Shown here: piece after piece, positions 1-63,825 of the stretch
Position numbering within the stretch: the first letter of the stretch is position 1
How the letters are laid out: the number at the start of each line of letters is the position of its first letter
From: a virus
Lineage: Duplodnaviria; Heunggongvirae; Uroviricota; Caudoviricetes
Reading direction: 5' to 3' (one strand)
DNA length: 64,000 nt
IMG/VR virus record: IMGVR_UViG_3300035492_000044
Coordinates: 46,179-110,178 of that record
Program-made: the position numbers and the translations under genes
The notes under the pieces: generated by a model
What the model was told of the DNA's origin: nothing
Seen by the model: only the letters and a program-made list of their open reading frames with translations
Database searches by the model: none

Positions 1-128
1 TCTTGAGAGACTTAAACAGCTTACTTAGTACGACGTTTAGGTACTCTGTAAGCCTGTTAGGTTGGGGTACGGGGTAAATCCGAGTATTCTAGTCCCCGTA
101 CATATTGTGAGAAAATGAGGTAAGTAAC

Positions 129-1049
129 GTGGATCTGAACAAACTGAAAGCTATTGCTGGTGATCTGAAGAAGAACCAGGAAGATCGTAAGAAGAATAGT
201 GGTGGGGGTGATTGGCCTAAGGCTACATTCCTCCCCGATGGTACCCACAAGGGTCGCTTCATCTTCGATCCGAATGAAGAAATCTATACCAAGTACGAGT
301 CCATCGGTTACTTTGCCAATGGTCTTCGTAACCCAGAGAACTACAAAGAGCAGTGGCCAGAAGGCTTCTACAATGAGATCCCCGATCTCAGCAAGGAGCT
401 GACTGGAGAGTACAAGATCTGGAAGTATGGTATGAAGACCAACTTCCTCGTATACTTCTACCTACTGGAGACTGATGCCAAGTCTGAGAACTGGCAGCCT
501 GGCACTCTGTATGCCATTATCGGCAACTGGAAGTTCGAAGATGCATTCACTGATCTTCTGACCAACATGGTGTCTGATGCCCCTGAGAAGATCCTGACCT
601 CCCTCGATCCGTCGAAGCCTGGTCCGGTATTCCAGATCACCTCTCAGGGTGGTAATCAGGGCAAGTGCAACATCTCGGCTACTTTCAAAGAGTCTCCGGA
701 GATCAGTATGGAAGGTCAGGGATACAAGTCCCTGGATGTCGCCTACATCCGTCCTGGCTTCGACCTCGAGAAGTACACCAAGATGGTCAAGGCTATGCGT
801 GAAGAACTGGCTCGATGCAAGCAGCGTCGTGCTGATGCTGGGTCTTCTGAGAAGAAGGAAGAGACTAAAGACGAGCCTAAGGCTCAAGAGTCTTCTTCTC
901 AAGCTCAGAGTGAGTCCACTCAGCAGGAACAATCTTCTACTGACGTGAAGCAGGAAGAAGCTAAGTCGGAGAATGTTGCAGAACAGGCTCAGTCTACTTC
1001 TACCGCTGAATCGACCGATGAGAATCCGTTCGCTAGATTCAAGCGTTAA
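129..1049 (+). CDS. ssDNA-binding protein, T4 gp32-like, with a long acidic S/E/Q-rich C-terminal tail
   Basis: N-terminal segment 'DWPKATFLPDGTHKGRFIFDPNEE' resembles the gp32 'W..L....G.AVIRFLP' region. Acidic low-complexity C-terminus is typical of SSBs. Preceded by a class-B motif at 31-65. Confidence 0.55.
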   Translation: MDLNKLKAIAGDLKKNQEDRKKNSGGGDWPKATFLPDGTHKGRFIFDPNEEIYTKYESIGYFANGLRNPENYKEQWPEGFYNEIPDLSKELTGEYKIWKYGMKTNFLVYFYLLETDAKSENWQPGTLYAIIGNWKFEDAFTDLLTNMVSDAPEKILTSLDPSKPGPVFQITSQGGNQGKCNISATFKESPEISMEGQGYKSLDVAYIRPGFDLEKYTKMVKAMREELARCKQRRADAGSSEKKEETKDEPKAQESSSQAQSESTQQEQSSTDVKQEEAKSENVAEQAQSTSTAESTDENPFARFKR

Positions 1050-1105
1050 GTGTTATGATGGGAGAGTTCGCAAGAGCTCTCCCATTTTATTTAGTGAGGA
1101 ATACC

Positions 1106-1963
1106 ATGCAACGAATAGTTATCGATGGCAACTGGCTAGGCATGAGAAACTTCCATGCTGCTGGTAAGATCCAGGATCGTAGTAAACTGGCCATCTCTAT
1201 CATGCAGTCCCTGTTGAAGATTATCCGGACAGATGAATATCGATCCCAGATTATTGTAGCATGGGACGGTGGTTCTTATCGGTATCGTGGATACCAAGAG
1301 GACTACAAAGAGGGTCGTGAGTATGACGAGGCATATAATTGTCTCTGGGAAGTACTGGCAACTCTACACGAACATCTACCTAAGATTGGCATCCACTCCA
1401 TTAGATGTAAGGGTGTTGAAGCAGATGATCTTGGGTACTATTACGGATGGCGTGCAGTTGAAGAGAATGTGTTCACTCTTCTTACTGCCATCGACCGTGA
1501 CTGGCTCATCTCCATAAATGAGAAGACATCGGTATTCCGTCCTGCTATCAATAAAGCACCTGAAGAGCTGGTTACTCACCAGAACATCGTTGAGAAGTTC
1601 CCTATCCAACACTTCTCCGAGTTCCTTATCTATAAGGCTATCTTCGGAGACGGTTCCGATAATATTCCAGGGGTAACTACTGGTGTTAATATTAACGAAG
1701 CTGTGTGCAAGTATAAGACAGGGCAACTCGGAGCTGATATTGTCGAGAAGATCGACAAGAACATCAACCTCATGCGACTTAATCACATTGTTACGGATAC
1801 AGAAGTCCATGAGATGATCAAAGAGTGTGAGAGTAAAATGGTACTTAATGTGCCTATCAGGGACCCTCTCACTGCTATTTGTGGCACCTTCCCTGAGTAC
1901 TTTAATGGTGTTGTTGGTAAATACCATCGTCTTCGCAAGTCAGAACTGATCGAGAGACTTTAG
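1106..1963 (+). CDS. 5'-3' exonuclease / flap endonuclease (T4 RNase H / PolI 5'-exo family)
   Basis: 'IVIDGNWLGMRNFHA', 'GVEADDL' and 'KAIFGDGSDNIPGV' match FEN/53EXO motifs. RBS 'gagga' before the ATG at 1106. Confidence 0.85.
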   Translation: MQRIVIDGNWLGMRNFHAAGKIQDRSKLAISIMQSLLKIIRTDEYRSQIIVAWDGGSYRYRGYQEDYKEGREYDEAYNCLWEVLATLHEHLPKIGIHSIRCKGVEADDLGYYYGWRAVEENVFTLLTAIDRDWLISINEKTSVFRPAINKAPEELVTHQNIVEKFPIQHFSEFLIYKAIFGDGSDNIPGVTTGVNINEAVCKYKTGQLGADIVEKIDKNINLMRLNHIVTDTEVHEMIKECESKMVLNVPIRDPLTAICGTFPEYFNGVVGKYHRLRKSELIERL

Positions 1964-1964
1964 C

Positions 1965-4742
1965 ATGAAATTTGTTATCTCAAGTGACGTACACATCTTC
2001 GACTTCCAACAGTTCAACTCTGGTGGTAATCGACTGAAGCAGTTCCCGCTTCTAGCTCATCGTCTTAATGCCATTGGTAGAGAGGAGGGGTCTAAGGACC
2101 TCATCCTCGCTGGTGACATTATTCACAAGGCAGTCCTCCGGCCATATGTAGTACACGTAGCTAAGGAGTTCTTCGATATCCTTCGGCTGCACTACACCAA
2201 CATCTATTACATCGTAGCTCAACACGATGCTGATAGTAAGGCTGAAGACTTAGGGTATGGTGATAGTCTTATCCCTATTATCTGCCCAGAAGCTAAGTAC
2301 ATGGACGGCCAGATCCTCGAGTTGGATAACAACCGTACTATGGCCTTCAGCAACTGGCGACCAGAGCAGAATTGGAGTTTCATTAAGGATAAGGTAGACA
2401 TTCTTATCGGGCATCTTACTCTGCATCCTATGTATGGCCAGGAGTACGATTGCAGCAAATACGAACTAGGATTCTTTGGTGACATACACCAGAAGTCCTC
2501 GTATGACAACGGTCGTACTAATACCATCAACGTTCCTATGCCTAACTACATCTCTGATGATCAGGAAGGCAGCGTAGTAGTTCTTGAGACTGATGACTTG
2601 TCATGGAAGCGTGTGCTGACTGAGTCTGAAGACTTCAAGTATCTGAAGATCTACTACGAAGACGAAGTACCTGCAGGTCTGGAAGGATATCCCAACCTAG
2701 CTCTGGTTGGACGATCGAAGGTGGATCCCTCCATTCAGCATATTCACACTTCAGTGAATGTTGATGAAGTAATCAAGGCGATTGTATCTAAGCTGGAGCT
2801 AGGTGAAATTCATAGCCAGCTTACTGGTCAAGTAGATCGTACTGATGTTTCTCCTCTCAATCTGAATTTCCGTCTCCGTACTATGGAGATCAACAACTTC
2901 AGGTCTATAGACAGGTTCGTATATGACTTTGATAGTGGTCTCACTACTATTACTGGCCATAATGGGGCTGGTAAGAGCTCCTTCATGGGAGCCCTTGACT
3001 ACGTACTTCGTGGATCATCCACGGCTCGTACTCTGGTTAAGAAAGGGACAGATAACATGTCTGTCACTATTACACTGGACTACGATGGTCGCTCTCACAC
3101 TATCATTCGTGGTGTTTCTGGTGGCAGCGGCATTATTAAGTACATTGTGGATGGTGAGGAGATGGTTGGAGCTGGCTCTCGTCAGATTGCAGCTGAAATC
3201 TCTGCCAAGCTTCCATTCTTAGCTCACTATGAGCTTATGTACCGTAGCCAGGAAGCTCCGGGACTACTTACCAGTTACGGTTATAATGACCGAATCAATA
3301 TGGTGAGTGAACTCCTGGGTCTTAGTCTGATCGGCAAATACCATGCAGTGGCTAAGACTAAGCTAGCTGAGGCTACCGCTCAGGTTAATCGTCGGAATAC
3401 TGAGATCGAAGGACTCAAGAGAGTTATTCTTGAGTACTCTGATGTTGATTTCTCTCTTCTTGACAATAAGAAGAACCTGGAAGATCAACTGGCATGGACC
3501 AATGAGTATCTCAAGTCCTATGAGGAGGATATGGGCAGACATAGAGAGCTTGCCCTAGTCCAGAATTCGATCAAGTCAACTCAGGACATGATCAATAGCC
3601 TTAATATTACCTTGACTGGTAATGAAGAGGCTGAAATCCAGGAACTACGTAAGCAGATTTCTGATGGGGAGAGCTTGATAGCTGAATTTACATCAGCCAA
3701 TAAGACTCACTCTGATGAAAGAGCAGCTAAGAAGCAGAGAGCCAAGTCCATTGAGAGTGATATTGAATCACTTAAGAAGCAGACTACTGGTGTTATGACT
3801 GCATGTCCTAGCTGTAAACGTGCATTCGATCCTTCGGATTATGAGAATGTTCTACAACACCTTCAGGATGAGATAGCCAAGAAGACTGAAGAGGCTAATC
3901 TGATACTCGAAGATATCCAGAAGACTGCTGAGCCTCCTCATGCAGAGTCTGATATCACTGAGATCAGAAATATCCTCAACGATCTTCGCAGCAAGATAAC
4001 CACTATCAATACTAAGATTGAGAACTACAATAAAGTTCGAGGTCTGGAAGAGAAGATGGTTACCCTCAAGCTACAGGAAGTTGGCATTCAAGCATCTATC
4101 AAGTATAAGCTGGATGAGATTACTAGTAAGAAGTCGGAGTTGCAAGGTCTGGCTGATGAATGCAATCGTCAACTGGGTGCTATCGATGGACTTCAGAAGC
4201 AATGGGATAAGCTCAAGTCATCTAAGACTGAACTGGCCGATGCTGAGAAGTGCTTAGAGGAGGATATTGCTACTAAGGAAGTACTTACTAAGTACGCAGG
4301 TATCTTCGCTCCGAGTGGTGATGTCACTGCATCTGTGTTCAAGTGTGTGGCTGATGAGATGACTGATGGTCGATTCAAGGTTCGTACCGTACGTGAGCTT
4401 GCTAGTGGTGAGACTCGCATTGACTTTGACATCGAACTCCAGGTTCACGATCTGATGCTACCTTATGGGGAACTGTCGGGAGGTCAACGTACCTATGCTG
4501 ACCTGTTCTTCATGAGTAAGCTGTTCAAGATGTCAGGTGTCGTAGGATGCTTGATTCTTGATGAATCACTTCGAGCTCTGGACCCAGATGCACTTGAAGA
4601 AGTTGTAGCTGAGATCAAGAGTGCTCCTATCAACAGCATCATTCTATCGACTCACGTAGAATCATTCCAGTTCTACGATGCCCGTCTGATGGCGCAACTG
4701 GTGGATAACACTACCAGATTCAGCGTTCACGGTAAGGTGTAA
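1965..4742 (+). CDS. Fused Mre11/SbcD-like phosphoesterase nuclease plus Rad50/SbcC-like ABC ATPase in one polypeptide
   Basis: N-terminus 'MKFVISSDVH..LILAGDIIH..IVAQHD..GHLTL' matches gp47/Mre11 metallophosphatase motifs. Then Walker A 'GHNGAGKSS', long coiled coil, zinc hook 'CPSCKRAF', signature 'LSGGQRTYADLFF', Walker B 'CLILDES'. Confidence 0.85.
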   Translation: MKFVISSDVHIFDFQQFNSGGNRLKQFPLLAHRLNAIGREEGSKDLILAGDIIHKAVLRPYVVHVAKEFFDILRLHYTNIYYIVAQHDADSKAEDLGYGDSLIPIICPEAKYMDGQILELDNNRTMAFSNWRPEQNWSFIKDKVDILIGHLTLHPMYGQEYDCSKYELGFFGDIHQKSSYDNGRTNTINVPMPNYISDDQEGSVVVLETDDLSWKRVLTESEDFKYLKIYYEDEVPAGLEGYPNLALVGRSKVDPSIQHIHTSVNVDEVIKAIVSKLELGEIHSQLTGQVDRTDVSPLNLNFRLRTMEINNFRSIDRFVYDFDSGLTTITGHNGAGKSSFMGALDYVLRGSSTARTLVKKGTDNMSVTITLDYDGRSHTIIRGVSGGSGIIKYIVDGEEMVGAGSRQIAAEISAKLPFLAHYELMYRSQEAPGLLTSYGYNDRINMVSELLGLSLIGKYHAVAKTKLAEATAQVNRRNTEIEGLKRVILEYSDVDFSLLDNKKNLEDQLAWTNEYLKSYEEDMGRHRELALVQNSIKSTQDMINSLNITLTGNEEAEIQELRKQISDGESLIAEFTSANKTHSDERAAKKQRAKSIESDIESLKKQTTGVMTACPSCKRAFDPSDYENVLQHLQDEIAKKTEEANLILEDIQKTAEPPHAESDITEIRNILNDLRSKITTINTKIENYNKVRGLEEKMVTLKLQEVGIQASIKYKLDEITSKKSELQGLADECNRQLGAIDGLQKQWDKLKSSKTELADAEKCLEEDIATKEVLTKYAGIFAPSGDVTASVFKCVADEMTDGRFKVRTVRELASGETRIDFDIELQVHDLMLPYGELSGGQRTYADLFFMSKLFKMSGVVGCLILDESLRALDPDALEEVVAEIKSAPINSIILSTHVESFQFYDARLMAQLVDNTTRFSVHGKV

Positions 4743-4750
4743 TTTGATTA

Positions 4751-4784
4751 GGGATAGTGGAGAAATCTGCTATCCCTTTTCATA
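4751..4784 (+). terminator. rho-independent terminator
   Basis: GGGATAG..CTATCCC hairpin + TTTTCAT after the SbcCD-like gene. Confidence 0.6.
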
Positions 4785-4796
4785 TGCAAAAATAGA

Positions 4797-4845
4797 GGGC
4801 GCTTACAGACGTCTAAAGCCAGTTAGGTTGGAAGGGGAATTCCCC
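4797..4845 (+). promoter_or_regulatory. Class-A conserved motif GGGCGCTTA-N9-AAAGCCAGTTARGGTGGAAG + GC hairpin (GGGGAATTCCCC)
   Basis: One of 9 near-identical copies: 4797, 16567, 22254, 28440, 32177, 57580, 61978, 62336, 63742. All on + strand, 25-60 nt upstream of a start codon. Confidence 0.6.
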
Positions 4846-4885
4846 AAATCAAAGCCAGTAAAAGGAAATGATCTTGAAAAATAAC

Positions 4886-5038
4886 ATGGTTCCGTTTGAT
4901 GCATCTTCGGTTGAATTCCTTATCACCAGCTACGACCCATTCGCTGGTGTATTCAACTGCGTTGACTCGGAGTTCAATGAATTCCGGGTATTCAAATGCA
5001 AGACTACTGGTAACCTGTTTATGGAGAAGTCGGTATGA
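4886..5038 (+). CDS. small hypothetical protein (50 aa)
   Basis: ORF found by eye below the track's size cutoff; lies between class-A motif 4797 and the next gene; ATGA overlap with the following ORF. Confidence 0.3.
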   Translation: MVPFDASSVEFLITSYDPFAGVFNCVDSEFNEFRVFKCKTTGNLFMEKSV

Positions 5039-5196
5039 AATTCAAATCTGGTCAGTCTTTCAAATATAAGGACAGGTACTTCGAAGTACTTGAACTGAAC
5101 ACTAATGAAGGGGCCTACATTTGCCTGGACGACCAGGAGGTTGTAGTTACCTTCCTAGTGACTGACGAGTCCGAGATGGAATTAGTGGAAGACTAA
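5035..5196 (+). CDS. small hypothetical protein (53 aa)
   Basis: ORF found by eye; translationally coupled to the upstream small ORF. Confidence 0.3.
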   Translation: MKFKSGQSFKYKDRYFEVLELNTNEGAYICLDDQEVVVTFLVTDESEMELVED

Positions 5197-5198
5197 AA

Positions 5199-5243
5199 CG
5201 ACGTTTTCTCATGTCGAAACCCTGTTAGGGGGAACGGTTCCCT
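5199..5243 (+). promoter_or_regulatory. Class-B conserved motif CGACGTTT-N7-10-TCGAAACCCTGTTAGGGTGGAAG + hairpin
   Basis: One of ~16 copies: 31, 5199, 8954, 9112, 12165, 17377, 26218, 33032, 34478, 35896, 36155, 36319, 41503, 43638, 47890, 52466. Some are degenerate. Confidence 0.6.
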
Positions 5244-5270
5244 TCCCTCTAACGTGATTGCGAGGACACT

Positions 5271-7268: not shown

Positions 7269-7271
7269 GAA

Positions 7272-8519: not shown

Positions 8520-8525
8520 TAAGTA

Positions 8526-8558
8526 GGGTGGGTGAAATATCCCACCCTATATTATTTT
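8526..8558 (+). terminator. rho-independent terminator (GGGTGGG..CCCACCC + TATATTATTTT)
   Basis: Hairpin + T-run after the topoisomerase genes. Confidence 0.65.
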
Positions 8559-8569
8559 GTAGGTGGCTC

Positions 8570-8938: not shown

Positions 8939-9172
8939 AAAGTACAATCAGACCGACGTTTTAATCGCTCGAAACCCTGTTGGGGTGGAGGGCGGGTAGT
9001 AGGCCCAAGTGCTCTAGGATGCTCAGGCATCCTAGCCTACTTAATACACTACCACTATCAGGAGAGGAAAATAGAGGATATACATGAAGAGTGCACTTAT
9101 GAAAAATAGTACGACGTTCATGTACCTCGAAACCCTGTTAGGGTGGATTCCCCAATCACTAGGACCCAATAA

Positions 9173-11307: not shown

Positions 11308-12172
11308 ATACGACGTAGTGCTGACAGGTTCTGATGGCTACATTGGGACCTATGTCAAGAATGCTCTTTCCACTATGGGTCTGAGTGTTCTCTGTGTTGA
11401 CCTCAAGTCAGGTCTTCACATGGCTGACGTCATGGGTGTATCTGCTAAGTGGTTGATCCACTTAGCAGCACTTATTGATGTTCGAGAGAGCCATGACAAG
11501 AACCATGCTTACTTCGACAATAACTGTGGCGCCTACTACGATCTGGTGATGAAGAATGGTAACACATTCGAAAATATCATCTATGCTTCGAGTGCTGCAG
11601 TTTATGACGACCACGGGAACATCAATCCTCAGTCTGTCTACGGGATGACTAAGCTTAATGGGGAATACATCACTAAGATGGCTTCTCCTACTAATCACCT
11701 AGTTCTCCGGTTCGCTAACCCAGTTGGAGTCAGCCCGGTTAGTACTCCTAAGATGGGTGATGGTCTATTCTTCAAACTGGCTCAAGCAGCCGTTGATGAG
11801 AAGGTCTTCTCCATCCACAACTCCGAACATATGAAGCGGGACTTCTTCCCGGTAATCTGGATTCCTCTTCTGATCTCTGCGGTCATTAAGGATGAGAACT
11901 TCAGCATGTTCGGTACTCATGACCTATGTAGCGGAAAGCTGGTCACTGTTCGCAGTGTCGTTGAAGCTCTCTGCGATCTTCATGAGATCGGGTACAAACT
12001 GGTAGCACCTCCCATCGGAACTCTGGAGAATGTGGAAGAGCGTGATTGCCCTATCCTCAACCAGTACCTGGATATCGTTTATCGTGGGTATGATCCAGTT
12101 GCATTTGTTACTGAGCAGTTCCCCAACTATCTCAAGTTAGCAGCTAAGATCGCTATCAAGTCCAGCGTTTAA
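11300..12172 (+). CDS. NAD-dependent epimerase/reductase family (SDR)
   Basis: 'LTGSDGYIGTYV' and 'YGMTKLNGEY' YxxxK; ATG overlaps the upstream stop. Confidence 0.7.
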   Translation: MAKYDVVLTGSDGYIGTYVKNALSTMGLSVLCVDLKSGLHMADVMGVSAKWLIHLAALIDVRESHDKNHAYFDNNCGAYYDLVMKNGNTFENIIYASSAAVYDDHGNINPQSVYGMTKLNGEYITKMASPTNHLVLRFANPVGVSPVSTPKMGDGLFFKLAQAAVDEKVFSIHNSEHMKRDFFPVIWIPLLISAVIKDENFSMFGTHDLCSGKLVTVRSVVEALCDLHEIGYKLVAPPIGTLENVEERDCPILNQYLDIVYRGYDPVAFVTEQFPNYLKLAAKIAIKSSV

Positions 12173-12191
12173 GTACGGCGAAAGCCTGTTA

Positions 12192-12226
12192 GGGTAATGG
12201 CGCGAATGTCATTACCCTATTTATTT
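12192..12226 (+). terminator. terminator-like hairpin GGGTAATG..CATTACCC + TATTTATTTC, fused to a degenerate class-B motif
   Basis: The hairpin begins at the GGGT of the motif's GTTAGGGT. Confidence 0.5.
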
Positions 12227-12242
12227 CTAGGAGATATGATTC

Positions 12243-13385: not shown

Positions 13386-13387
13386 TC

Positions 13388-15071: not shown

Positions 15072-16567
15072 TGACACTCAAGATTGGCATCACTTCGTTT
15101 GGCTCTGGTGTACGTGGTATCTCCAAGTACGAGGAGAGTCTTAGTAATAGCGGTATCATCGATTCTGGTCTCTTCCAGATGTTGGTCCAAGAGATGGGTG
15201 CTGAACTCATCATTGTAGGTGCCATGCAGAAACGCTGTAAGGATATTGTGCAGGATGGCACTAATCCTTATCACGAGCCGTGGATGGACGGTATCCGAGT
15301 AGTTCAGTCATGGGCTGATATGCCAGAAGACCTGGATTGCCTAGTAGTGCAGCAAGGCGCTGAGAATCTTCGATTCACTGTCAGCTTTGATGGTGTCACC
15401 TGCACTGCTGCCTATCATGTCTACAAACTGATGGACGTATACCGCAACACTCCTGTTGTATACTTCCAGACAGACTTTGGCACTCCTCTCTGGATGCCAG
15501 AGACTTATGGTGGATTCTTCGCCAAGGCATTCAAGCCAGATGCTCTGTACAAGAAGCGTAAGGTGTATGTCCTTCCTGCTGGTCACATCAACAATGATGC
15601 AGCACGTAAGATCATGGTTAATACTCTGGCCTATCGTCATAGTGGAATCGAGATCCTGGACAACTATCCTGACATTCACTTCCTGACTGACATCAACTAC
15701 AAAGATAGTTACCCTATCACCAGTGCTCCGACAGGTCTGGCATTCGCTGGTAAGTCACGGAGATTCGGTGACAGATCTCCTCTCGTACGAGACATCATTA
15801 AGGCTCTGCCCAGTGAGATCAGCTTCACTCTCATGGGCAAGTGGTCTGAGATGGTAACTGAAGTCCTAAGAGAAAATGATGTCAATAAGGGTTATCTGCA
15901 GCAACATAGCGAAGTCTTGAAGACTTACAATGAAGCAGGATTCACTCTGTACATTACTGCCCCAGAGTATCGCACCATTCGAGCCTTCACGTCTCGTATG
16001 ACTGATGCCATTGTGGCTAATTGCCTGCCTATCATCTGGCACGAAGACTGGGATGTAATCAAGCATCAGTTCGGAGTTGATCCTGACGTAACTACTATCT
16101 TGGCTGGACTGGTAGTTGAAAAGGCAGAAGATATTCCCCATAAGATGGTTGAGTTCTACGATAAGGACAAGCGTGAGAGTATCCTGTCCATGCTTCGTAA
16201 TACTTTCCTCTATCAGTCGGATACTGCCAAGGAGAACATTGGTCGTAAGCTGGAGTACATCATCAATCACGACGATGCTGATGAGACTGTAGCGGTACCT
16301 ACTGAGATCTTCGGCTTGTACGTTGATGGGCAGTTGTCGGCACGTCGTAATAAGGCAGCCACTACTGAAGAAGCTCAAGCACGCTATGAAGAAGCATTCA
16401 ATAGCGAGCTGACAGCTAATGACATCTACAACGTTAAGATGCAGACTGGACTCTTCATGGAGTACGGTAGCAAGGAGACGTTCAAAGACGTACCTCAAGA
16501 GTGGCTGGAGAAGACCTTCAATACTCCATCTACTAAACGCTTCCTCGAGTACGCCCTATCCAACTAG
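15071..16567 (+). CDS. hypothetical; weak resemblance to T4 alpha-glucosyltransferase (Agt) N-terminus
   Basis: 'KIGITSFGSGVRGISKY' vs Agt 'RICIFMARGLEGCGVTKF'; 'RSPLVRDIIKA' vs 'RSPAFIAIKEKG'. Tentative. Confidence 0.3.
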   Translation: MTLKIGITSFGSGVRGISKYEESLSNSGIIDSGLFQMLVQEMGAELIIVGAMQKRCKDIVQDGTNPYHEPWMDGIRVVQSWADMPEDLDCLVVQQGAENLRFTVSFDGVTCTAAYHVYKLMDVYRNTPVVYFQTDFGTPLWMPETYGGFFAKAFKPDALYKKRKVYVLPAGHINNDAARKIMVNTLAYRHSGIEILDNYPDIHFLTDINYKDSYPITSAPTGLAFAGKSRRFGDRSPLVRDIIKALPSEISFTLMGKWSEMVTEVLRENDVNKGYLQQHSEVLKTYNEAGFTLYITAPEYRTIRAFTSRMTDAIVANCLPIIWHEDWDVIKHQFGVDPDVTTILAGLVVEKAEDIPHKMVEFYDKDKRESILSMLRNTFLYQSDTAKENIGRKLEYIINHDDADETVAVPTEIFGLYVDGQLSARRNKAATTEEAQARYEEAFNSELTANDIYNVKMQTGLFMEYGSKETFKDVPQEWLEKTFNTPSTKRFLEYALSN

Positions 16568-16642
16568 GGCGCTTAGAGTACTGGAGAGCCAGTTAGGGTG
16601 GGAGGAGTTTCGGCTCCCTCACCCTTCTACTTAGGAGACATC

Positions 16643-17362: not shown

Positions 17363-17404
17363 AACGTGTAAAATCACGACGTTTAAGTCTCTTGAAAACC
17401 TGTT

Positions 17405-17436
17405 AGGGTAGGGGAACTCTTCCTCTACCCTATTTT
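17405..17436 (+). terminator. terminator-like hairpin GGGTAGGGGAA..TTCCTCTACCC + TATTTTTG, fused to class-B motif
   Basis: Hairpin + T-run immediately after the motif. Confidence 0.5.
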
Positions 17437-17451
17437 TGTGAGTAATTATTC

Positions 17452-18862: not shown

Positions 18863-18871
18863 GGACTAGTT

Positions 18872-22253: not shown

Positions 22254-22307
22254 GGGGCGCTTACAGACTGTAAAAGCCAGTTAAGGTGCGAGGGGCGAAC
22301 TGCCCCT
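22254..22307 (+). promoter_or_regulatory. Class-A motif copy + hairpin AGGGGCGAACTGCCCCT
   Basis: 'GGGGCGCTTACAGACTGTAAAAGCCAGTTAAGGTGCGAGGGGCGAACTGCCCCT' upstream of 22330. Confidence 0.6.
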
Positions 22308-26164: not shown

Positions 26165-26286
26165 TTTAATGCTGGTACTCGATTTAGGGTACCAGCTTTT
26201 TATATGCCATTCATTCCAACGTCCAGATAAGTCGAAACCCTGTAAGGTCGGGGAAGGTCCTCCACTTAATTAGGAGTTTAATTAGT

Positions 26287-28418: not shown

Positions 28419-28511
28419 CGAAAAATAGTTTAGTATATCGGGGCGCTTAGGAGCCTCTAAAGCCAGTTAAGTTGGAAGGCGGGACTTCCCGCCGTACTTA
28501 CTACTTTAGAG

Positions 28512-32146: not shown

Positions 32147-32253
32147 GATATTCACTGAAAAATATTTTCAAATACAGGGGCGCTTACAGACTCCAAAAGC
32201 CAGTTAAAGTGGAAGGGCCGGTTGGCCGCAACTAAATAAACTGGAGCTAAATC

Positions 32254-33022: not shown

Positions 33023-33135
33023 AACTCCAAACGACGTTTATGTCCTGCGAAAACCTGTTAGGGTGGCGGGTGGGTCCAGTACTCCCGCTTACTGTACTTA
33101 CTCAGAGACTACTTAGGAAGAGAGGAAAGAAGAGT

Positions 33136-34470: not shown

Positions 34471-34556
34471 CTCCAAACGACGTTCAGATAAGTCGAAACC
34501 CTGTTAGTGTGTAAGTCCCGAAACTCTGTTCTCAACTAAATAAAGGAAATAGCTTC

Positions 34557-35895: not shown

Positions 35896-35934
35896 CGACG
35901 TTTTCATAAGTCGAAAACCTGTTAGGTTGGAAGT
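35896..35934 (+). promoter_or_regulatory. Class-B motif copy at the entrance of the tRNA island
   Basis: 'CGACGTTTTCATAAGTCGAAAACCTGTTAGGTTGGAAG'; further copies at 36155 and 36319 precede tRNAs. Confidence 0.6.
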
Positions 35935-36144: not shown

Positions 36145-36359
36145 TATTTCTAAACGACGTTTTACTACGTCGAAACCCTGTTAGGGTGGAAGACGAGTGT
36201 ATTTGAGAAGGCTGGCCAGAATAGCTTCTGGTAGGGTGAACTCTCTGGAGACCGATGACGCCATGCTTCGGTAGCGCATGAAGATGATCCGTCAGTCCTT
36301 CTCCAATACAATCTAGACCGACGTCCAAATAAATCGAAACCCTGTTAGGTTGGAAGTGC

Positions 36360-40585: not shown

Positions 40586-40638
40586 TCCATCAGAAGCCAC
40601 TAATGCTGTGGAAAACTCTGCAAAAATTTAGGTGACTT

Positions 40639-40932: not shown

Positions 40933-40935
40933 GTT

Positions 40936-41502: not shown

Positions 41503-41546
41503 CGACTTCCAGATAGTCCGAAACCCTGTTAGGGTGGAAGTCGGAA

Positions 41547-43581: not shown

Positions 43582-43590
43582 GTGAAGATA

Positions 43591-43626
43591 GGGTAGATTC
43601 CTCACGGGGTCTACCCTATTTATTTA
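43591..43626 (+). terminator. rho-independent terminator (GGGTAGA..TCTACCC + TATTTATTT)
   Basis: Hairpin + T-run after the dUTPase gene, immediately before class-B motif 43638. Confidence 0.65.
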
Positions 43627-43697
43627 CCTATTTATTCCGACGTTTATGTGCTTCGAAACCCTGTTAGGGTGTAGGTTGTTCAACGTGAGGTATAACC

Positions 43698-47186: not shown

Positions 47187-47903
47187 ATGAGTAAGATACT
47201 TGAGATAGCTCTTAAGTCAAAGATATGCAGACCATCGAAGAAGGTGGTGGATGACTACAAGCCATGGGGCATCTCCATCACCCAAACGATGAATTGCATG
47301 AGGTTCAACTGGATTAACTACAATCGACCTAAGGAGATTGATGGGTACGAATTCGTCTACATGAAGGATGACCCTTACAACTACTCTGGTTCGCTGATTG
47401 TAGGTATGGGGTACTGTGTTGAGAATATTGTGGCAGAGTTCCTCAAGGAGTCTGGCATCTTCATCTCCACTCAGGATAAGGTCCGGGACCTAGGTAACAA
47501 GTGGAGAGGTAACCTCGACTACCTAGTCAATCTCAAGCCATGGGGTTATGGTATTGGTGACTGTAAGGGTATGTCAGAGAGGAAGTTCCAGGGATTCCTG
47601 GAGAGACCACTCAAAGAGGTTATGTTCGACTACTACGTCCAGTTGACCTCTTACATCCACATCATGGATGTACCGTACGGATTCATCGTTGGAGTAAACC
47701 GAAGTAATGGCAAGGTAGAAGTACGTGTCATTACTAAGGAAGAGACCAAGGATGACTTCCTGTTCTATCGTGGTCGAGTCAAGCAGACCCTAGATGCTCA
47801 GAGTGTGTACGATCTCCCTATCGAGGAAGATAAGTGCCATGGGTGCAGTAATGTACCTTTCTGTCATCGAGGTAAGCCTGAATTGATTGCGACGTTCACG
47901 TAA
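47187..47903 (+). CDS. Cas4/RecB-like PD-(D/E)xK nuclease with Cys cluster
   Basis: 'LDYLVN..IGDCKG' (D..DxK) and 'YYVQLTSY' (QxxxY). One N-terminal Cys plus C-terminal 'CHGCSNVPFCH' (Fe-S-like). Confidence 0.5.
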   Translation: MSKILEIALKSKICRPSKKVVDDYKPWGISITQTMNCMRFNWINYNRPKEIDGYEFVYMKDDPYNYSGSLIVGMGYCVENIVAEFLKESGIFISTQDKVRDLGNKWRGNLDYLVNLKPWGYGIGDCKGMSERKFQGFLERPLKEVMFDYYVQLTSYIHIMDVPYGFIVGVNRSNGKVEVRVITKEETKDDFLFYRGRVKQTLDAQSVYDLPIEEDKCHGCSNVPFCHRGKPELIATFT

Positions 47904-47950
47904 CTCGAGAACCTGTTAGGGTGTTGGAAGACACCCTACTGGAGGTATGT

Positions 47951-52465: not shown

Positions 52466-52503
52466 CGACGTTTTACTGTCTCGAAACCCTGTTAGGTTGG
52501 AGC
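52466..52503 (+). promoter_or_regulatory. Class-B motif copy upstream of the DNA polymerase gene
   Basis: 'CGACGTTTTACTGTCTCGAAACCCTGTTAGGTTGGAGCAG'. Confidence 0.6.
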
Positions 52504-57024: not shown

Positions 57025-57486
57025 ATGGAAGATATTGGTCTACTTAGGCGAAAATATAAGCAGAAAATAATCAATGCCCAAAAGGATGGTTTTAATGTCT
57101 ACCTGACATTCGAAGAGTATTTAGCCAAGGCAGAAGAAGCTGGGATTAAACATCCTGATGAGATATCTCCTAGTGGGTTTCATTTATCTCGAGTTAATGA
57201 CGAGGGAGATTACAGAAATGATAACTGCCGATTCTTACCGTGTAAGGAGAATCATAGAGAGAAGAAACACTTACGTGGGGTTAATCACCCATGTTATGGG
57301 AAGCCTGGTAATTTACTAGGTAAGAAGGTAGTGAGGAGTTGTAATAGAAAGCTCTCTGACGATATGGTAGTTGCTATCTTTAATGACACCAGAAAAGTAG
57401 GTGAAATATGCAAAGAGTATAATGTAGTTGTCTCTACTGTCAATAAGATAAAGAGACGAGAAATTTATAGCTATCTTACAAGTTAG
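57025..57486 (+). CDS. putative HNH homing endonuclease
   Basis: 'GFHLSRVNDEGDYRNDNCRF' HNH-like; AT-rich codons differ from neighbours; free-standing between large conserved genes. Confidence 0.45.
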   Translation: MEDIGLLRRKYKQKIINAQKDGFNVYLTFEEYLAKAEEAGIKHPDEISPSGFHLSRVNDEGDYRNDNCRFLPCKENHREKKHLRGVNHPCYGKPGNLLGKKVVRSCNRKLSDDMVVAIFNDTRKVGEICKEYNVVVSTVNKIKRREIYSYLTS

Positions 57487-57645
57487 TTCTCTGGGTATCA
57501 GTGTTGAGTACTCAGAGATTCGGAGGATAAATTATTTTTCTGAAATACGAAAAATACTTTATCTATTCGTGGTTTTTCAGGGCGCTTACAGACTGTTAAA
57601 GCCAGTTAGTTTGGCCTTGGAGGCCTAACCTCTTGCAATAAGGCA

Positions 57646-58233
57646 ATGCTAATGTCAGACCAACGGAAATTATCAACACTAAAACTGGATACCTCGGGGG
57701 AATTCCTTGACCTTAGCTTCTACGATACGGTGCTTAAAGAGAAGTCCGTTGACCGGATGGACTACTACTTAAGTCGGGTTACTAATAACCCAGCCTACTC
57801 TGAATCTCTTCGTCTCGAAGCATACAACCACTTCCATCCGCGATTTGGTAAGTTCTGCTCTCTTGGTGAAGTGTCCGACTCGGTGGCTACTACGCCCACC
57901 TCTCAAGTTACGGTACTTGAGTCCACTTCTGTTAAGCAAGCAAGTCCTTCTTCTGACGCTAAGACCGACTTGACCTTAACTCGGTTAGTACGTATTATCA
58001 GCACTAAGCCGAATTCTGACAACCTACTCAAAGTCCTTGCATGGCATCTGGTGATGTGCAACATTACATTCTCCAATCCCATGCTGGATGAGCTTATCGC
58101 ACAATTCCGTCGTATATCCAATCTCACCTTCAACCACTTAATAGAGTGTATTGGATCGCGGTACGGTGCAGAACGAGCTAGAGAGAGTTTCAAATCGGTT
58201 TACAATAAGCACGTTCTGGGACAAATGGAGTAA
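57646..58233 (+). CDS. hypothetical protein
   Basis: ORF after class-A motif 57580. Confidence 0.4.
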   Translation: MLMSDQRKLSTLKLDTSGEFLDLSFYDTVLKEKSVDRMDYYLSRVTNNPAYSESLRLEAYNHFHPRFGKFCSLGEVSDSVATTPTSQVTVLESTSVKQASPSSDAKTDLTLTRLVRIISTKPNSDNLLKVLAWHLVMCNITFSNPMLDELIAQFRRISNLTFNHLIECIGSRYGAERARESFKSVYNKHVLGQME

Positions 58234-58239: not shown

Positions 58240-59694
58240 ATGCGTCCTGTACTTAAGATCAAACTTATGTCAGACAGCAATATTAAGTCTGTCAGTTCTG
58301 GGGAAATTGAGTCCTACCGTCTGTACAACTTCAAGTACAAGACACCTCGCCCAGTACCGGGTGGTCTATTCTGCGAGAAGATCTTTGGTCCTATCCAGGA
58401 TTACACCTGTGCCTGCGGTATCCGTCACTCTATTGCCTTGAAAGTATGCGAGACCTGCGGTGTGCCTATTCTTAGTGCACGTGAACGCCGTAATCGTATG
58501 GGGCATATCAATTGTCGCCTCCCCTACCTAAATCCAATTGCCTCTGACCTAGTCGGCGGTATCTTCGGAGTTAGTGGTAAGGCTCTCCTCGATGTGGCAG
58601 TAGGTACCTCGCGGTACTACATAGAGGAGGCAGCTGGTTCAGGTCCATTGATCAGTTCGAGCGGTGTGCGTTATCGCATTCAAATCGTAGGTAAGGAAGA
58701 TCCTGAGTGGGAGAACTCCGATTACTCGATTTACTCGCTTCTCTCTGACCTGATTGACCTGGACATTAGTGGTGAGGAGACACTCTCCAAGCACAAAAAT
58801 CCTGATGTTCGTCGGTATTATGAAAACGGGTTCACTTCGGTCCTGAATTTCTTCAATACCTCAGTTCTTGTTCCGCCACCTCTCCACCGAGATATCTCCA
58901 TCTCGAATGGTGAGATTTCGTATCACCCCACTAATATCCTCTACCTTCGACTCATTCGAGTAGCTCATCGATTCCAGGTTATTATGGAATCGGAGAACGA
59001 GGATATGTTGGTTCTACTCCGTGAAGAAGCTCGAGTTCTCCAGCATCTGGTGAATTCAGTTTACACTGAAGGAGCTAAGGACCATCGCGGTAACGCTATC
59101 CCAGCCATTATGGACAAACTGGGAGGTAAAGAGGGTCTGTTTCGTGGTAATATGCTAGGCAAGCGTATTGACTACTCCGGACGTTCCTCGATTACTACAG
59201 GTCCCGATCTCCCGATTGATACCTGCGCTGTACCGTTCAAAATGATGTACACTCTGCTTGAACCCCATATCCTCGGAAGGCTAGTTACTCTGGCAGAAGA
59301 GCGATTCAATGGGGAGGCTAATCCGTACACTGTGGCTTCTCGTTGGTATAAGAGGCAGACCACTGAGGCGGTTGAAGCCTGCTATGACCTTGCCAAGGAG
59401 GCTATTGTAATCCTTAACCGAGCTCCATCGCTCCATCGCTATTCGGTAATGGGATTTAAGGTAGTTCTTCACTCTGGTAAGAGTATCCGGATACCTCCGC
59501 TAATCTGCTCCCCATTCAACGCAGACCATGATGGCGACACCATGGCGATTCACCTGCCGTTGTCTAAGCAGGCACTAGCTGAGTTCCCTCTGTATTCGGT
59601 TCAGCATAATCTGATGAGTTCTATCGATTATGACACCCCGAATATGTCTCCGTCCCACGAGGCTGTAGTGGGTCTGTACCAGCTCACCCTGTGA
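58240..59694 (+). CDS. Multisubunit RNA polymerase beta' subunit, N-terminal half
   Basis: Zn-binding 'DYTCACGIRHS..CETCGV', 'ARERRNRMGHINCRLPYLNPI' (vs 'RRERMGHIELASPTAHIW'), catalytic 'NADHDGDTMAIHLPLS' (vs 'NADFDGDQMAVHVPLT'). Confidence 0.9.
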   Translation: MRPVLKIKLMSDSNIKSVSSGEIESYRLYNFKYKTPRPVPGGLFCEKIFGPIQDYTCACGIRHSIALKVCETCGVPILSARERRNRMGHINCRLPYLNPIASDLVGGIFGVSGKALLDVAVGTSRYYIEEAAGSGPLISSSGVRYRIQIVGKEDPEWENSDYSIYSLLSDLIDLDISGEETLSKHKNPDVRRYYENGFTSVLNFFNTSVLVPPPLHRDISISNGEISYHPTNILYLRLIRVAHRFQVIMESENEDMLVLLREEARVLQHLVNSVYTEGAKDHRGNAIPAIMDKLGGKEGLFRGNMLGKRIDYSGRSSITTGPDLPIDTCAVPFKMMYTLLEPHILGRLVTLAEERFNGEANPYTVASRWYKRQTTEAVEACYDLAKEAIVILNRAPSLHRYSVMGFKVVLHSGKSIRIPPLICSPFNADHDGDTMAIHLPLSKQALAEFPLYSVQHNLMSSIDYDTPNMSPSHEAVVGLYQLTL

Positions 59695-59775: not shown

Positions 59776-61299
59776 ATGCTGGTAAATAACGTTCATTATT
59801 TCAACAATCCTCAAGCAATTCACGAAGCGTATGAGAACGGGTTGATTACTTACCATACCGAGGTTAAGTATAAGTTCCGGGACACTACTGAGTGGGTTGA
59901 CATTACTTATGGGCGATTCCTGATCTGGGAATTCACTGGGTACCTCCCAGAGGGTGCCCTTAGTAAGAAGGGTGTGAAGAATCTCGTTATCCACATTAAC
60001 CGGGAGTACAGCCCTGAAGTAGCTGTTAAGAAGATGAAACAGCTACAAGATCTGGCTTTCAAGATCGCCACTGAGAAGGGAATTACCCTTGGGATGGACG
60101 ACTTCCACCCAATGCCTGGTACTAACGAGATCATGGCAGAAGAGCAGGTCCGTATCTCGGCTCTTCCTATCGAAGAGCGAGCTGAAGAGTGGGATACCGT
60201 TATTAACGGCCAGGTAGATCGCTGGATTAACGAGGTCGATCGAAATAACCCTCTCTACGCCATGTACCAGTCAGGTGCTCGAGTAACTCCCTCCCAGATA
60301 CGCCAGATGGTTGTTGGTAAGGGTCTTCTCACTAAGATGAACGGTGAGATTAACCCGGATGCAGTTACTCAGTCTCTGGCAACAGGACTTAGTGTGTACA
60401 ATTACTTCATGACATGTGGGCCTGCTCGGAGAGGTCTGGCTAACAACTTCTTCGTAGTTCCTGCCTCTGGATACTTCGCACGGCAGCTGGTTAATGCTGC
60501 GCGTGACCTTACCATCGTAGAAGAGGACTGCGGTACTCGAGAGGGGGTAGAGGTCAAGTCGAAATACGCAGTAGGTCGCTACCTTGCAGGTACATCCGAA
60601 CTCTGGACTAAGGACAGCAAGACTGACATGCCTTACCTCAAGGTGAGGAGTCCTCTTACCTGCTCCTCTGTTCTAGGTGGACTCTGCGCTAAGTGCTGTG
60701 GACAGGATCCTGCCACTAACGAGGATTGGAGAGTAGGTTTCGGTATGGGGACAGCGTCGGCTCAGCATATCTCGGAACCAGCTACTCAGGCCGGTCTACG
60801 TGGTAAGCATACCTCAGGTTCGGTTACTCTGGCGGATTACCGTAACTCGGTTGATAACGTACTTCCGAACATCATCAGGGCTTTCGGTGGTATCGGTACT
60901 CAGTTCGTAACTACTGAGGGAGCTACTTCGAAGACCCTATACGACTTCAGCAAGACTGAGAAGGATCCTATTACTGCAGCTGAGAAGCTCTGCCAGCACA
61001 TTAAGGACCTGTTCGTGGAGGGTGGTCTGGGTGTAGCTAGCATCCACATCGAGGTAATTATTCGCTCCTGTATTGAGCAGGTAATTAAGAAAGATGGTGA
61101 AGTAGGTCTTCGGTCTCATGGAGATGAGGGCCGAATCAAGTGCCTCAACGTGAGTCAGGTTCCTCTTAATTACCCGAGCTGGCTGAAGTCTATCAGCTTC
61201 GGCTACACCTCCAGCCGACTCCGTAAGGCAGTATGCCGGATGGAGAAGACTTACGGCGTAATGACGGAGCAGATTATGACAACTGCGTTCCAACACTAA
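59776..61299 (+). CDS. Multisubunit RNA polymerase beta' subunit, C-terminal half
   Basis: 'VPASGYFARQLVNAARDLTIVEEDCGT' (vs '[26 protein letters not shown]') and trigger-loop 'SEPATQAGLRGKHTSG' (vs 'GEPGTQLTMRTFHIGG'). Confidence 0.85.
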   Translation: MLVNNVHYFNNPQAIHEAYENGLITYHTEVKYKFRDTTEWVDITYGRFLIWEFTGYLPEGALSKKGVKNLVIHINREYSPEVAVKKMKQLQDLAFKIATEKGITLGMDDFHPMPGTNEIMAEEQVRISALPIEERAEEWDTVINGQVDRWINEVDRNNPLYAMYQSGARVTPSQIRQMVVGKGLLTKMNGEINPDAVTQSLATGLSVYNYFMTCGPARRGLANNFFVVPASGYFARQLVNAARDLTIVEEDCGTREGVEVKSKYAVGRYLAGTSELWTKDSKTDMPYLKVRSPLTCSSVLGGLCAKCCGQDPATNEDWRVGFGMGTASAQHISEPATQAGLRGKHTSGSVTLADYRNSVDNVLPNIIRAFGGIGTQFVTTEGATSKTLYDFSKTEKDPITAAEKLCQHIKDLFVEGGLGVASIHIEVIIRSCIEQVIKKDGEVGLRSHGDEGRIKCLNVSQVPLNYPSWLKSISFGYTSSRLRKAVCRMEKTYGVMTEQIMTTAFQH

Positions 61300-61978: not shown

Positions 61979-62053
61979 GGGCGCTTACAGAGCTCTAAAG
62001 CCAGTTAAGGTGAGGGGGAAGTTCCCCAGACTTCTGTTTAGGTGGAGAAAATT

Positions 62054-62335: not shown

Positions 62336-62392
62336 GGGCGCTTAGAACGTCCAAAAGCCAGTTAAAGTGGAAGGGCGGACTTACCGCTTTCC
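62336..62392 (+). promoter_or_regulatory. Class-A motif copy + hairpin
   Basis: 'GGGCGCTTAGAACGTCCAAAAGCCAGTTAAAGTGGAAGGGCGGACTTACCGCTTTCC' upstream of 62419. Confidence 0.6.
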
Positions 62393-62799: not shown

Positions 62800-62811
62800 T
62801 TCAAATCCCTA

Positions 62812-62846
62812 GGGTGAGTGTACTTTGTGTACTCACCCTATTTTTG
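62812..62846 (+). terminator. rho-independent terminator (GGGTGAGTGTAC..GTACTCACCC + TATTTTTG)
   Basis: Hairpin + T-run. Confidence 0.7.
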
Positions 62847-62857
62847 TGCTAAATTAA

Positions 62858-63738
62858 TGAGGTTGAAAATGAAGTGCCGTAGAATTATTTCTCATCTCCT
62901 TGCTGAAGCTCGTCGTCTGGAGGATGAGGGAGATAAATGGCGTAGTATCGCCCATCGTAAGGGTGCTTCTGCCATTAGTCAAGTTCTTAAGTCGAACGAG
63001 GAAGTACCTAAGGATTTTGACTGGATGAGCATAAGTGGAATAGGTCCAAGTCTTAATTCCAAGATTCAAGCAGTATTGGCCGGAGAAGTGAGTACAAATA
63101 CATCTTGGATGGACTGGATGAGTAAGGAAGATAGAGCCGAAATTCTTAAATACTTTGACTGTCAGAGTGATCACGAATTTCTACTCGAGATTAGAAAATC
63201 TCCGTACTATACCCACGTGTCCGATGCCGTACTAAAGCACTACGGGCTATTTAGGATCCCAGAATTATTATACCCGTTGACTCAGGTACTAGAGACCTAC
63301 TTGGGAGACTTGGTAATCCAAGTTACTGGAGGTATACGTAGGAAGAACAATGTGGGGCACGATATTGATTACGTAGCTGCGTGCTCACATGAGGAGTTGA
63401 TGAAGAGGATTGACAAGATAAATAATTCCTCTAAAGTGCAATTGACTCCAATTAATCAGGGTGAGAGCTTCCCTCGATTTATAGCTGATTTCCGAGGACA
63501 TAAAATCAATGTGGACTTCCGTCTCTGTGAACCCAGATTCTTCGCATCCATGGTCCTTTATTTAACTGGGTCTAAGGAGCATAATATTCGGCTTCGTTCG
63601 ATAGCCAAGAAGAAGGGATTCCTTCTTAATGAGTATGGACTTACCAGAATAGGTGCAGAATCCCCTATGGAAATATGGTCTGAGATGGGAATATTTGAGG
63701 TACTTGGTGAGCCTTATATAAAACCAGAGTACCGCTGA
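62858..63738 (+). CDS. Family X DNA polymerase (Pol beta-like, minimal)
   Basis: HhH 'ISGIGPSLNSKI', 'GGIRRKNNVGHDIDYV' (vs Pol beta 'GSFRRGAESSGDMDVLL'), 'YLTGSKEHNIRLRSIAKKKGFLLNEYGL' (vs '[28 protein letters not shown]'). Confidence 0.8.
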
Positions 63739-63825
63739 TTAGGGGCGCTTAGAAGCTTCTAAAGCCAGTTAAAGTGCAGGGGAAGCGCCGCCGCTTACCT
63801 AATTATTTCCTTCGGAGAATGTAAA

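Follow-up and report, generated by a model that had tools for sequence, protein, structure and literature searches.

Phage-specific promoters that fall into temporal or specificity classes are already known in kind. In phage YerA41, the RNA polymerase (RNAP) subunits are early and are also found in virions, and PolA and the nucleotide enzymes are middle (PMC7354516); the annotation of that phage offers only generic BPROM sigma70 predictions (PMC9023294). The promoters of the non-virion RNAPs of phiKZ and AR9 are short AT-rich elements near the start and have no −35-like box (PMC5449584, PMC7598289). Here, a two-part 38-nt signal is described that recurs 25 times in a 64,000-nt stretch of phage DNA (hereafter the window), positions 46,179 to 110,178 of the IMG/VR virus record IMGVR_UViG_3300035492_000044 (Caudoviricetes). 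These 25 motifs are probably DNA-level promoters of the early and middle transcription units of the phage, in two classes that are conserved in its clade. The literature that we searched on its relatives, on phage promoters and on phage RNAPs contained no promoter consensus for this group and no description of these motifs. Measured against that literature, the consensus, the pairing of sigma70-like geometry with a new kind of upstream box and spacer element, and the two-class conservation across the clade are new.

A preliminary description of the window, made from the letters alone, had proposed about 25 copies in two classes, on the + strand only and in intergenic positions, and each of these points was borne out. 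Pattern searches recovered nine class A copies, of the form GGGCGCTTA-N9-AAAGCCAGTTARRGTG, and 16 class B copies, of the form (a)CGACGTTT-N7-TCGAAACCCTGTTAGGGTGGAAG; all 25 were on the + strand and none on the − strand. GGGCGCTTA was matched nine times, on the + strand only, against 0.15 expected, and eight of these nine sites fit the full 38-nt class A pattern with ≤3 mismatches (0 expected). With the same tolerance the class B core TCGAAACCCTGTTAGGGTGGAAG gave 10 matches, and looser cores brought the class to 16 copies. For a degenerate 11-mer core, 23 matches were obtained, all of them on the + strand. Pattern searches on shuffled sequence returned ∼0 matches. The window is 89% coding with its genes all on the + strand, and 21/25 copies lie entirely within the 11% outside open reading frames (ORFs, ≥60 aa). 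The remaining four touch gene ends or a mechanically called, doubtful GTG start only.

The internal architecture of the motif was then read from the alignment, with the T of “TA” in GTTA numbered −12. All 25 copies align gap-free in a register common to both classes, in which the upstream box starts 25 nt ahead of GTTA; the spacing of N7-10 claimed before was wrong. The upstream box occupies −39 to −31 (GGGCGCTTA in class A, CGACGTTTn in class B) and is followed by a spacer of nine variable nucleotides of fixed length, which in class B carries TCG at its 3′ end. A conserved AAAsCC at −21 to −16 reads AAAGCC in class A and AAACCC in class B, and position −15 is A in class A and T in class B. 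The shared 3′ core of the preliminary description must be qualified in that the classes also differ there (AAAGCCA versus AAACCCT), and the CTCCAAA prefix given for class B is present, exactly or nearly, in three copies only. G-14 is invariant (25/25), as is T-13. An extended −10 TG at −15/−14 is present in 16/16 class B copies; class A has AG, that is, G-14 only, in 9/9. The −10 hexamer TAnnnT is conserved at T-12 (24/25), A-11 (24/25) and T-7 (23/25), is variable at −10 to −8, and is followed by G-6 and then GAAG, giving a G-rich discriminator GGAAG downstream of the hexamer. The gap from box to hexamer is 18 bp in all 25 copies. A conserved TAnnnT, (T)G at −15/−14 and a G-rich discriminator are the −10 recognition signature of sigma70-family factors. 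As DNA, the motif has sigma70-family promoter geometry, and a reader with two domains would fit the presence of a second box, rigidly spaced ∼35 bp upstream. This box stands at the correct distance for a −35 element (16-18 bp upstream of the −10) yet is unlike TTGACA (GGGCGCTTA or CGACGTTT), and a sigma70 consensus scan made no calls at the motif sites. Host-type sigma70 consensus sites were under-represented in positions 1-20000, with 18 against 30.6 (standard deviation 5.9) in shuffled sequence.

The placement of the motif relative to genes was also compared. With +1 predicted 7 nt after T-7, leaders of 33-44 nt result in all class A copies and of 21-65 nt in class B, with Shine–Dalgarno sequences and start codons intact downstream. 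In two class B copies, 86 and 125 nt separate the predicted +1 from a downstream tRNA gene and no ORF intervenes, which ties the motif to transcription and not to translation. These distances also correct the earlier statement that the copies directly adjoin tRNAs, which lie 86-125 nt downstream.

A GC hairpin had been claimed directly after each copy. This was true of class A, in which a GC stem of 4-7 bp begins within 0-4 nt downstream of 9/9 copies; all nine hairpins rank in the top quarter for stability among 1500 random 36-nt windows (∼4e-6 for independent copies). It failed for class B, which showed no hairpin enrichment: 3/16 copies have a downstream hairpin, 4/16 have the TAGGGT core as the 5′ arm, and the rest have none. 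The TAGGGT core forms the 5′ arm of a stable hairpin in five copies, these four of class B and class A 16567. A GC hairpin followed by a T-run, the form of an intrinsic terminator, was found at 2/25 copies, 12163 and 17377, and terminator-like hairpins stand just upstream of several motif copies. Terminator-like hairpins were located at 4750-4777, 8525-8548, 12191-12218, 17405-17431, 43590-43617 and 62811-62839; they have a common stem base (T)AGGGT...ACCCT(A), then ATTT(A/T)TTT, and their TAGGGT is the same as the promoter −10 region. Within the motif itself, the alignment of the 25 copies showed no conserved pairing or covariation. An internal hairpin (CGACGT/ACGTCG and ACCCT-GTT-AGGGT pairs) was considered and rejected, compensating changes being absent across the copies. 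Rfam matched only tRNAs and the transfer-messenger RNA (tmRNA), so that the motif is no known RNA family.

Conservation in other phages was examined next to the window itself. No near-identical or close phage genome was found in INPHARED by megablast. The same phage region was recovered from an independent run, SRR11791770, as a Logan contig of 9452 nt (L059), which encodes a 195-aa-family protein at 100% identity and carries four class A copies with the same sequences as the window. The nearest cultured relatives are Acinetobacter phage Ab1-TPeters and the E. coli phages EP_H11 and IME392, with 30-45% protein identity and a syntenic replication module; Ralstonia RP13 and the Rhizobium RHph_TM30 group are more distant. 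These phages have been grouped with YerA41 and Carin-5 as having T-hypermodified DNA (PMC12686479). In the window, a 5-hydroxymethyldeoxyuridine (5-hmdU) DNA kinase and sugar-nucleotide enzymes imply hypermodified thymidine, and the thymidine of this phage DNA is probably hypermodified.

Homologous bipartite motifs were found in EP_H11, in Ab1-TPeters and in the Logan metagenomic contigs L061 and L062, both of which hold both classes. Class i of EP_H11, CCGCTCTTT-N-TCGAAAGGCTGTTAAAGTG, keeps the register of the window and has 22 copies genome-wide, with TAnnnTG in 22/22. Class ii, AACGAAnTnTGGG-N-AAAGCCCGTTCTTTTGGGTGGGGCG, is followed by a GC hairpin and has four copies. All 26 EP_H11 copies share the + strand with the genes that follow them, and the 37.6-kb minus-strand structural (late) block is served by none of them. 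The Ab1-TPeters motif is CTGTYTCTTAA-N-AAAACCTGTTAAGTTG, and a degenerate core, AAATCTTGTTAGGGCGGAAGGG and AACCTGTCAGGGTGG, is retained in L054 and L060, the AT-rich relatives whose beta′ is the closest (46-50% identity). YerA41 showed no equivalent motif, only repeated cTAGGGAGCTCCCTAg palindromes, and its final record carries no annotation for the “sigma factor” of the 2020 paper. PolA, a deoxynucleoside monophosphate (dNMP)-kinase-like gene and the 5-hmdU-kinase operon stand behind class B in the window and behind class i in EP_H11/L061. The operons of the beta′ N-half (together with the 195-aa gene), of the beta′ C-half and of PolX stand behind class A in the window and class ii in relatives. 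Class A and class ii have in common the AAAGCC core, the trailing GC hairpin and an upstream A/T-rich stretch (AAAAATA / TTTCAAATA). The idea of two classes, put forward from the window alone, is supported because the relatives keep two classes before the same gene sets. This conservation is the strongest argument for promoters; the promoter reading as a whole is well supported by comparative genomics, from which initiation itself is a further step that we infer. In L054 and L060, long GC-rich intergenic repeats were also observed, which accompany the degenerate TGTTAGGG core and may be lineage-specific promoter classes. In L054 they read, for example, CTCAGGTGCAACAyTGwTCT...CCyAyTTTyCTyTTGsGGGyG (6660-6760, 9297-9410, 11560-11656 and 15077-15179), and in L060, for example, CTCTAAGGGTTTTCAC...TTCCGTTCTGA (6225-6536, 8950-9405 and 11443-11612).

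The split beta′ claimed for this phage in the preliminary description was confirmed: the N-half, with an NADHDGD active site and a Zn finger, lies at 58240..59694 and the C-half at 59776..61299, both on the + strand. Compared with Salmonella RpoC, the N-half is 31% identical over its whole length (blastp), and tblastn high-scoring segment pairs over about three-quarters of the protein average 37%. A 195-aa protein of unknown function (57646..58233, + strand), whose gene always adjoins beta′ in relatives, is a candidate accessory or specificity subunit. Its AlphaFold2 model was of low confidence (predicted local distance difference test score 57) and gave no Foldseek match below E = 1; a sigmaE match at E = 2.5 was dismissed as noise. 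Family profiles of the 195-aa protein and of a 221-aa protein were negative against PDB sequences, and a beta′ pattern scan of IMG/VR returned no matches.

Several observations weigh against reading the motifs as promoters. Searches by tblastn with Salmonella RpoB and YerA41 beta as probes revealed no beta subunit in the window or the complete genomes of EP_H11 and Ab1-TPeters, nothing genuine appearing at E≤1. These probes gave sub-threshold alignments only, spurious and short (E = 0.039-0.1), in an Ab1 structural gene. The same probes detect the very divergent betas of phiKZ-/AR9-type phages, with the Escherichia, Rhizobium and Ralstonia relatives not among the matches, and an RpoC probe detects the beta′ halves (E 1e-13 to 1e-33). 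By hhalign, no profile similarity to beta was seen for the three proteins conserved next to beta′. Similarly, no Sigma70 Pfam domain was present in ∼40 window proteins or 59 EP_H11 proteins scanned, and Pfam and PHROGs scans for a sigma or specificity subunit were negative. No −35 element known so far is similar to the upstream box, and class ii of the relatives has C, not A, at −11 (GTTCTTTTGG), so that TAnnnT does not cover every class of the family. In the five copies whose core lies inside a hairpin, two of them terminator-like, the extra assumption is needed that initiation takes place within the 5′ arm. Moreover, in a few copies (EP_H11 97487; window 41528) the Shine–Dalgarno sequence lies only 4-8 nt past T-7, which would leave a very short leader.

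From sequence comparison, the clade appears to encode a split, catalytically intact beta′ but no detectable beta. The failure to find beta in the window or in two complete relatives makes a self-sufficient phage RNAP doubtful, and the “promoters of a phage multisubunit RNAP” that had been suggested are therefore not to be taken literally: such an enzyme is not established, since the phage encodes a split beta′ alone and neither beta nor sigma was detected in these genomes. The phage may have a beta that escapes detection, or its beta′ may work with host subunits; the sigma70-like −10 geometry is compatible with the latter.

The preliminary description had further likened the motifs to promoters of phage-encoded RNAPs. 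This likeness did not hold, the architecture being unlike T7-type, N4 and phiKZ/AR9 promoters and having instead sigma70-family geometry (TAnnnT at −12 to −7, G/TG at −14/−15). T7-type promoters, too, recur in many highly conserved copies that point the same way as the genes and lie in intergenic gaps, but they form one contiguous ∼23-bp block across the start, whereas the motif is bipartite and spans 38 nt; no T7-like single-subunit RNAP gene was found among the large ORFs of the window. N4 virion-RNAP promoters carry a stem of 5-7 bp with a 3-nt loop upstream of the start, whereas the hairpins described here are downstream, variable in sequence and loop, and missing in about half of class B. 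Like this phage, the phiKZ/AR9 jumbo phages encode relatives of the large RNAP subunits and use phage-specific promoters. However, their RNAPs consist of very divergent beta and beta′ fragments, while the beta′ found here is ∼31-37% identical to bacterial RpoC and no beta is detectable; unlike their promoters, the motif is 38 nt long, bipartite and GC-balanced.

Parallels were also found among sigma-type systems. Extended −10 sigma70 promoters (TGnTATAAT) share with the motif T-12, A-11, T-7, the variable middle, G-14 (TG in class B), a second element ∼35 bp upstream and a G-rich discriminator; they differ in that the upstream box of the motif is not TTGACA and that AAAsCC is added at −21 to −16. 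Compared with host promoters, conservation over the 38 nt is far higher and the spacing never varies. T4 middle promoters also combine a phage-specific box in place of −35 with a TAnnnT −10, and also serve replication and nucleotide-metabolism genes. On the other hand, the box of the motif lies 18 bp, not ∼12 bp, from the hexamer, there are two box classes, the phage encodes its own beta′, and no MotA/AsiA homologue was seen among the proteins scanned. Promoters read by phage sigma factors (T4 gp55 late TATAAATA, SPO1 gp28 and gp33/34, phiEco32 gp36) resemble the motif in that a phage-specific consensus, differing by time class, works through a sigma-type mechanism. Their consensus sequences are unrelated, however, and no sigma-family protein was found among the window and EP_H11 proteins scanned.

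A different explanation is that host RNAP with sigma70 reads the motifs as extended −10 promoters, that a phage activator bound to the upstream box stands in for the −35 contact, in the manner of T4 middle promoters (MotA/AsiA), and that beta′ has another role. We consider this possible, though on balance unlikely. Host sigma is always available, and no phage beta or sigma was found. The TGnTAnnnT of class B and EP_H11 class i is the sigma70 requirement at extended −10 promoters, and the −10 part is kept across phages of different hosts while the upstream box varies by lineage, as expected of a phage-specific activator site. The class A box GCGCTTA is also loosely like the MotA box, the consensus of which is TGCTTtA. 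Nevertheless, AAAsCC and the invariant G-14 and T-13 exceed what sigma70 requires, the 18 bp between box and hexamer compares with ∼12 bp for MotA boxes, and the MotA/AsiA family had no match among the proteins scanned with Pfam and PHROGs, which covered only part of the small ORFs. The probable hypermodification of thymidine should disturb host sigma70 contacts to T-12 and T-7, and the presence of a conserved catalytic beta′ (NADHDGD) downstream of class A promoters speaks for a change to the polymerase itself by the phage.

The motif could also act at a level other than initiation. At 16567, 33032 and 47890 it starts at the point where the upstream gene ends, or within that end, and no terminator separates the two, so read-through RNA must contain it; this, with the hairpin after every class A copy, would suit a processing or stability signal in polycistronic transcripts, at which a host or phage endoribonuclease cuts and the hairpin shields the new 5′ end. 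Such a role is improbable, since two conserved boxes with a variable spacer of fixed length are a signature of DNA recognition, neither conserved pairing or covariation nor an Rfam match was seen, about half of class B has no hairpin, and TAnnnT would be left unexplained. The copies at 12163 and 17377, fused to hairpins with T-runs, and the AGGGT/ACCCTA stem base that stand-alone terminator-like hairpins share with the core might instead point to a module for termination, insulation or antitermination, with motif and hairpin recognised by a factor that stops or modifies the upstream polymerase. A T-run in only 2/25 copies, the many copies with no hairpin, the separate terminators already upstream of several copies, and the fixed short distance of the motifs before genes make that very improbable. 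A selfish family, or one like the repetitive extragenic palindromic (REP) elements, with no role in gene expression, would agree with a multi-copy, intergenic element, but is hardly credible. REP elements and miniature inverted-repeat transposable elements occur in both orientations, as imperfect palindromes and in host or unrelated genomes, whereas these motifs are on one strand only, are not palindromic as a whole, give single chance matches elsewhere, and keep their position before orthologous genes in distant phages. The spread of a REP-like family through non-phage DNA, which the preliminary description had named as contrary evidence, was looked for and not seen: the bipartite unit was absent from IMG/VR, 596 Gb of genomes and the metagenome collection. 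IMG/VR showed no multi-copy motif, the class A pattern was absent from the metagenome contigs searched, and the class B core gave only single chance matches in metagenomes and genomes, none with the upstream box.

Promoter function, as proposed in the preliminary description, is thus the best-supported reading, given the co-orientation with genes, the intergenic position, the rigid two-box spacing with a variable spacer, the placement before tRNAs and ORFs, the homologous motifs in distant relatives and the absence from the EP_H11 late block. If the motifs are promoters, initiation would occur at or just after the last G of GGAAG, and the GC hairpin of class A would then lie at the very 5′ end of the transcript. 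Most simply, this 5′ stem-loop would slow 5′-end-dependent decay. At 12163 and 17377, a start inside the 5′ arm would mean that read-through RNA is stopped while promoter-initiated RNA is unable to fold the hairpin, which would make a compact insulator. The reading enzyme would be the phage split beta′ with a sigma-like specificity factor, or host sigma, and the two classes may answer to two specificity determinants or time classes. By analogy with YerA41, early expression is probable for class A/ii, found before the beta′ and PolX operons and before series of small ORFs, and middle expression is probable for class B/i, found before replication, nucleotide-metabolism, DNA-modification and tRNA units. 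One specific arrangement, which we regard as quite unlikely, is a hybrid polymerase in which the phage split beta′ replaces host beta′ in the host core (beta, alpha, omega). AAAsCC at −21 to −16, where the beta′ zipper nears DNA, and the upstream box would be read by phage beta′ and a small partner, such as the 195-aa neighbour, and the sigma-type −10 contacts would be kept.

The nine class A copies, all on the + strand, were distributed as follows. The copy at 4797..4834 has its GC hairpin at 4834-4845 and a predicted +1 at 4836. At 16567..16604, the first base is within the stop codon of the upstream gene, the hairpin (16595-16625) takes in the TAGGGT core, and a methyltransferase gene is next. 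The copy at 22255..22292 (hairpin 22291-22307) leads a run of small ORFs of unknown function. Those at 28441..28478 (hairpin 28478-28493) and 32178..32215 (hairpin 32216-32227) each have AAAAATA 13 nt upstream of the box. At 57580..57617 (hairpin 57619-57633) a copy leads the operon for the 195-aa protein and both beta′ halves, with a class ii counterpart at the same place in EP_H11 and L061. Downstream of it, 61979..62016 has a hairpin at 62014-62027, 62336..62373 (hairpin 62372-62390) stands upstream of a 126-aa gene and the PolX gene, and 63743..63780 has a hairpin at 63779-63800. AAAAATA itself has eight + strand copies, six of which (4788, 9102, 28421, 32158, 57550 and 62316) precede a promoter box, mostly of class A; the distances are 2, 3, 13 (three times) and 23 nt, in ascending order, with steps of about one helical turn; EP_H11 class ii has AAAATAAA / TTTCAAATAA where the window has AAAAATA. 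It may be an UP-like element or a second overlapping signal.

The 16 class B copies, also on the + strand, precede a wider range of genes in the order of the window. The copy at 31..68, with core AAGCCTGTTAGGTT, is upstream of a 306-aa gene and of exonuclease and SbcC-like genes, and that at 5199..5236, the core of which is part of its hairpin, is upstream of topoisomerase II. The copy at 8954..8991 has G in place of A-11 and no long ORF until the next promoter, 9112..9149, which precedes aminotransferase and sugar-nucleotide enzyme genes. In 12163..12200 and 17377..17414 the core is the 5′ arm of the terminator-like hairpins 12191-12218 and 17405-17431, each followed by a T-run; the latter copy is upstream of the 5-hmdU DNA kinase gene. 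The weak copy at 26217..26254 (GTAAGGTC) has a terminator upstream, 33032..33069 begins right after the stop codon 33020-33022, and 34478..34515 is upstream of an SPFH/Band 7 gene. Three copies lie close together near tRNAs: 35896..35933, with tRNA-Leu(taa) 125 nt downstream; 36155..36192, a perfect consensus right after tRNA-Leu with ∼135 nt of non-coding sequence downstream; and 36319..36356, with tRNA-Arg(tct) 86 nt downstream. The copy at 41503..41540 is upstream of a 109-113-aa gene and tRNA-Met. The copy at 43638..43675 lies between the terminator 43590-43617 and the AAA_28 (dNMP-kinase-like) and thymidylate-synthase-like genes, and class i stands before the EP_H11 orthologue. The copy at 47890..47927 overlaps the end of the upstream gene, with a small ORF and a helicase gene downstream, and the predicted +1 of 52466..52503 is 21 nt before the family A DNA polymerase gene, the same position being kept in EP_H11 and L061. 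Following 8954 and 36155, ∼120-135 nt with no convincing ORF (8993-9111 and 36194-36318) precede the next promoter; these stretches could be small RNAs.

Other features of the window were also noted. Its proteins include an SbcCD-like nuclease, topoisomerase II, ribonucleotide reductase, a DinG-type helicase, family A DNA polymerase and PolX. A DNA hypermodification block at 9173-18456 contains aminotransferase-like, epimerase, cytidylyltransferase/mannose-6-P isomerase-like, GT47-like, methyltransferase and 5-hmdU DNA kinase genes, the last at 17452-18456, and the thymidylate-synthase-like gene lies at 44450-45514. A mostly non-coding 7-kb island at 35900-42700 holds eight tRNAs and a tmRNA (37807-38241), which scored above threshold for permuted and betaproteobacterial tmRNA models alike; the island includes stretches of several hundred bases with no ORF or known RNA family. 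An Acb1 homologue, directed against the cyclic-oligonucleotide-based antiphage signaling system (CBASS), lies at 27055-27588, and an HNH endonuclease gene (57025-57486) is inserted between the polymerase module and the beta′ operon.

The clade to which these motifs belong comprises EP_H11, IME392 and Ab1-TPeters and, at a greater distance, RP13, the RHph_TM30 group and YerA41/Carin-5; it combines hypermodified DNA with bacterial-type beta′ genes and has barely been studied. For such phages, a 38-nt consensus in two conserved classes would serve as a ready map of transcription units. It would also offer a biochemical handle on the enzyme and factor for each class and on the effect of thymidine modification. 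Compact, strong and orthogonal promoter parts may be on offer as well, EP_H11 being a phage that grows on E. coli. Together with the apparent lack of a beta gene, the motifs turn the role of a lone phage beta′ into a testable question. If the hybrid polymerase were true, phages with hypermodified thymidine would re-target the host enzyme by the swap of one subunit, without a whole polymerase of their own.

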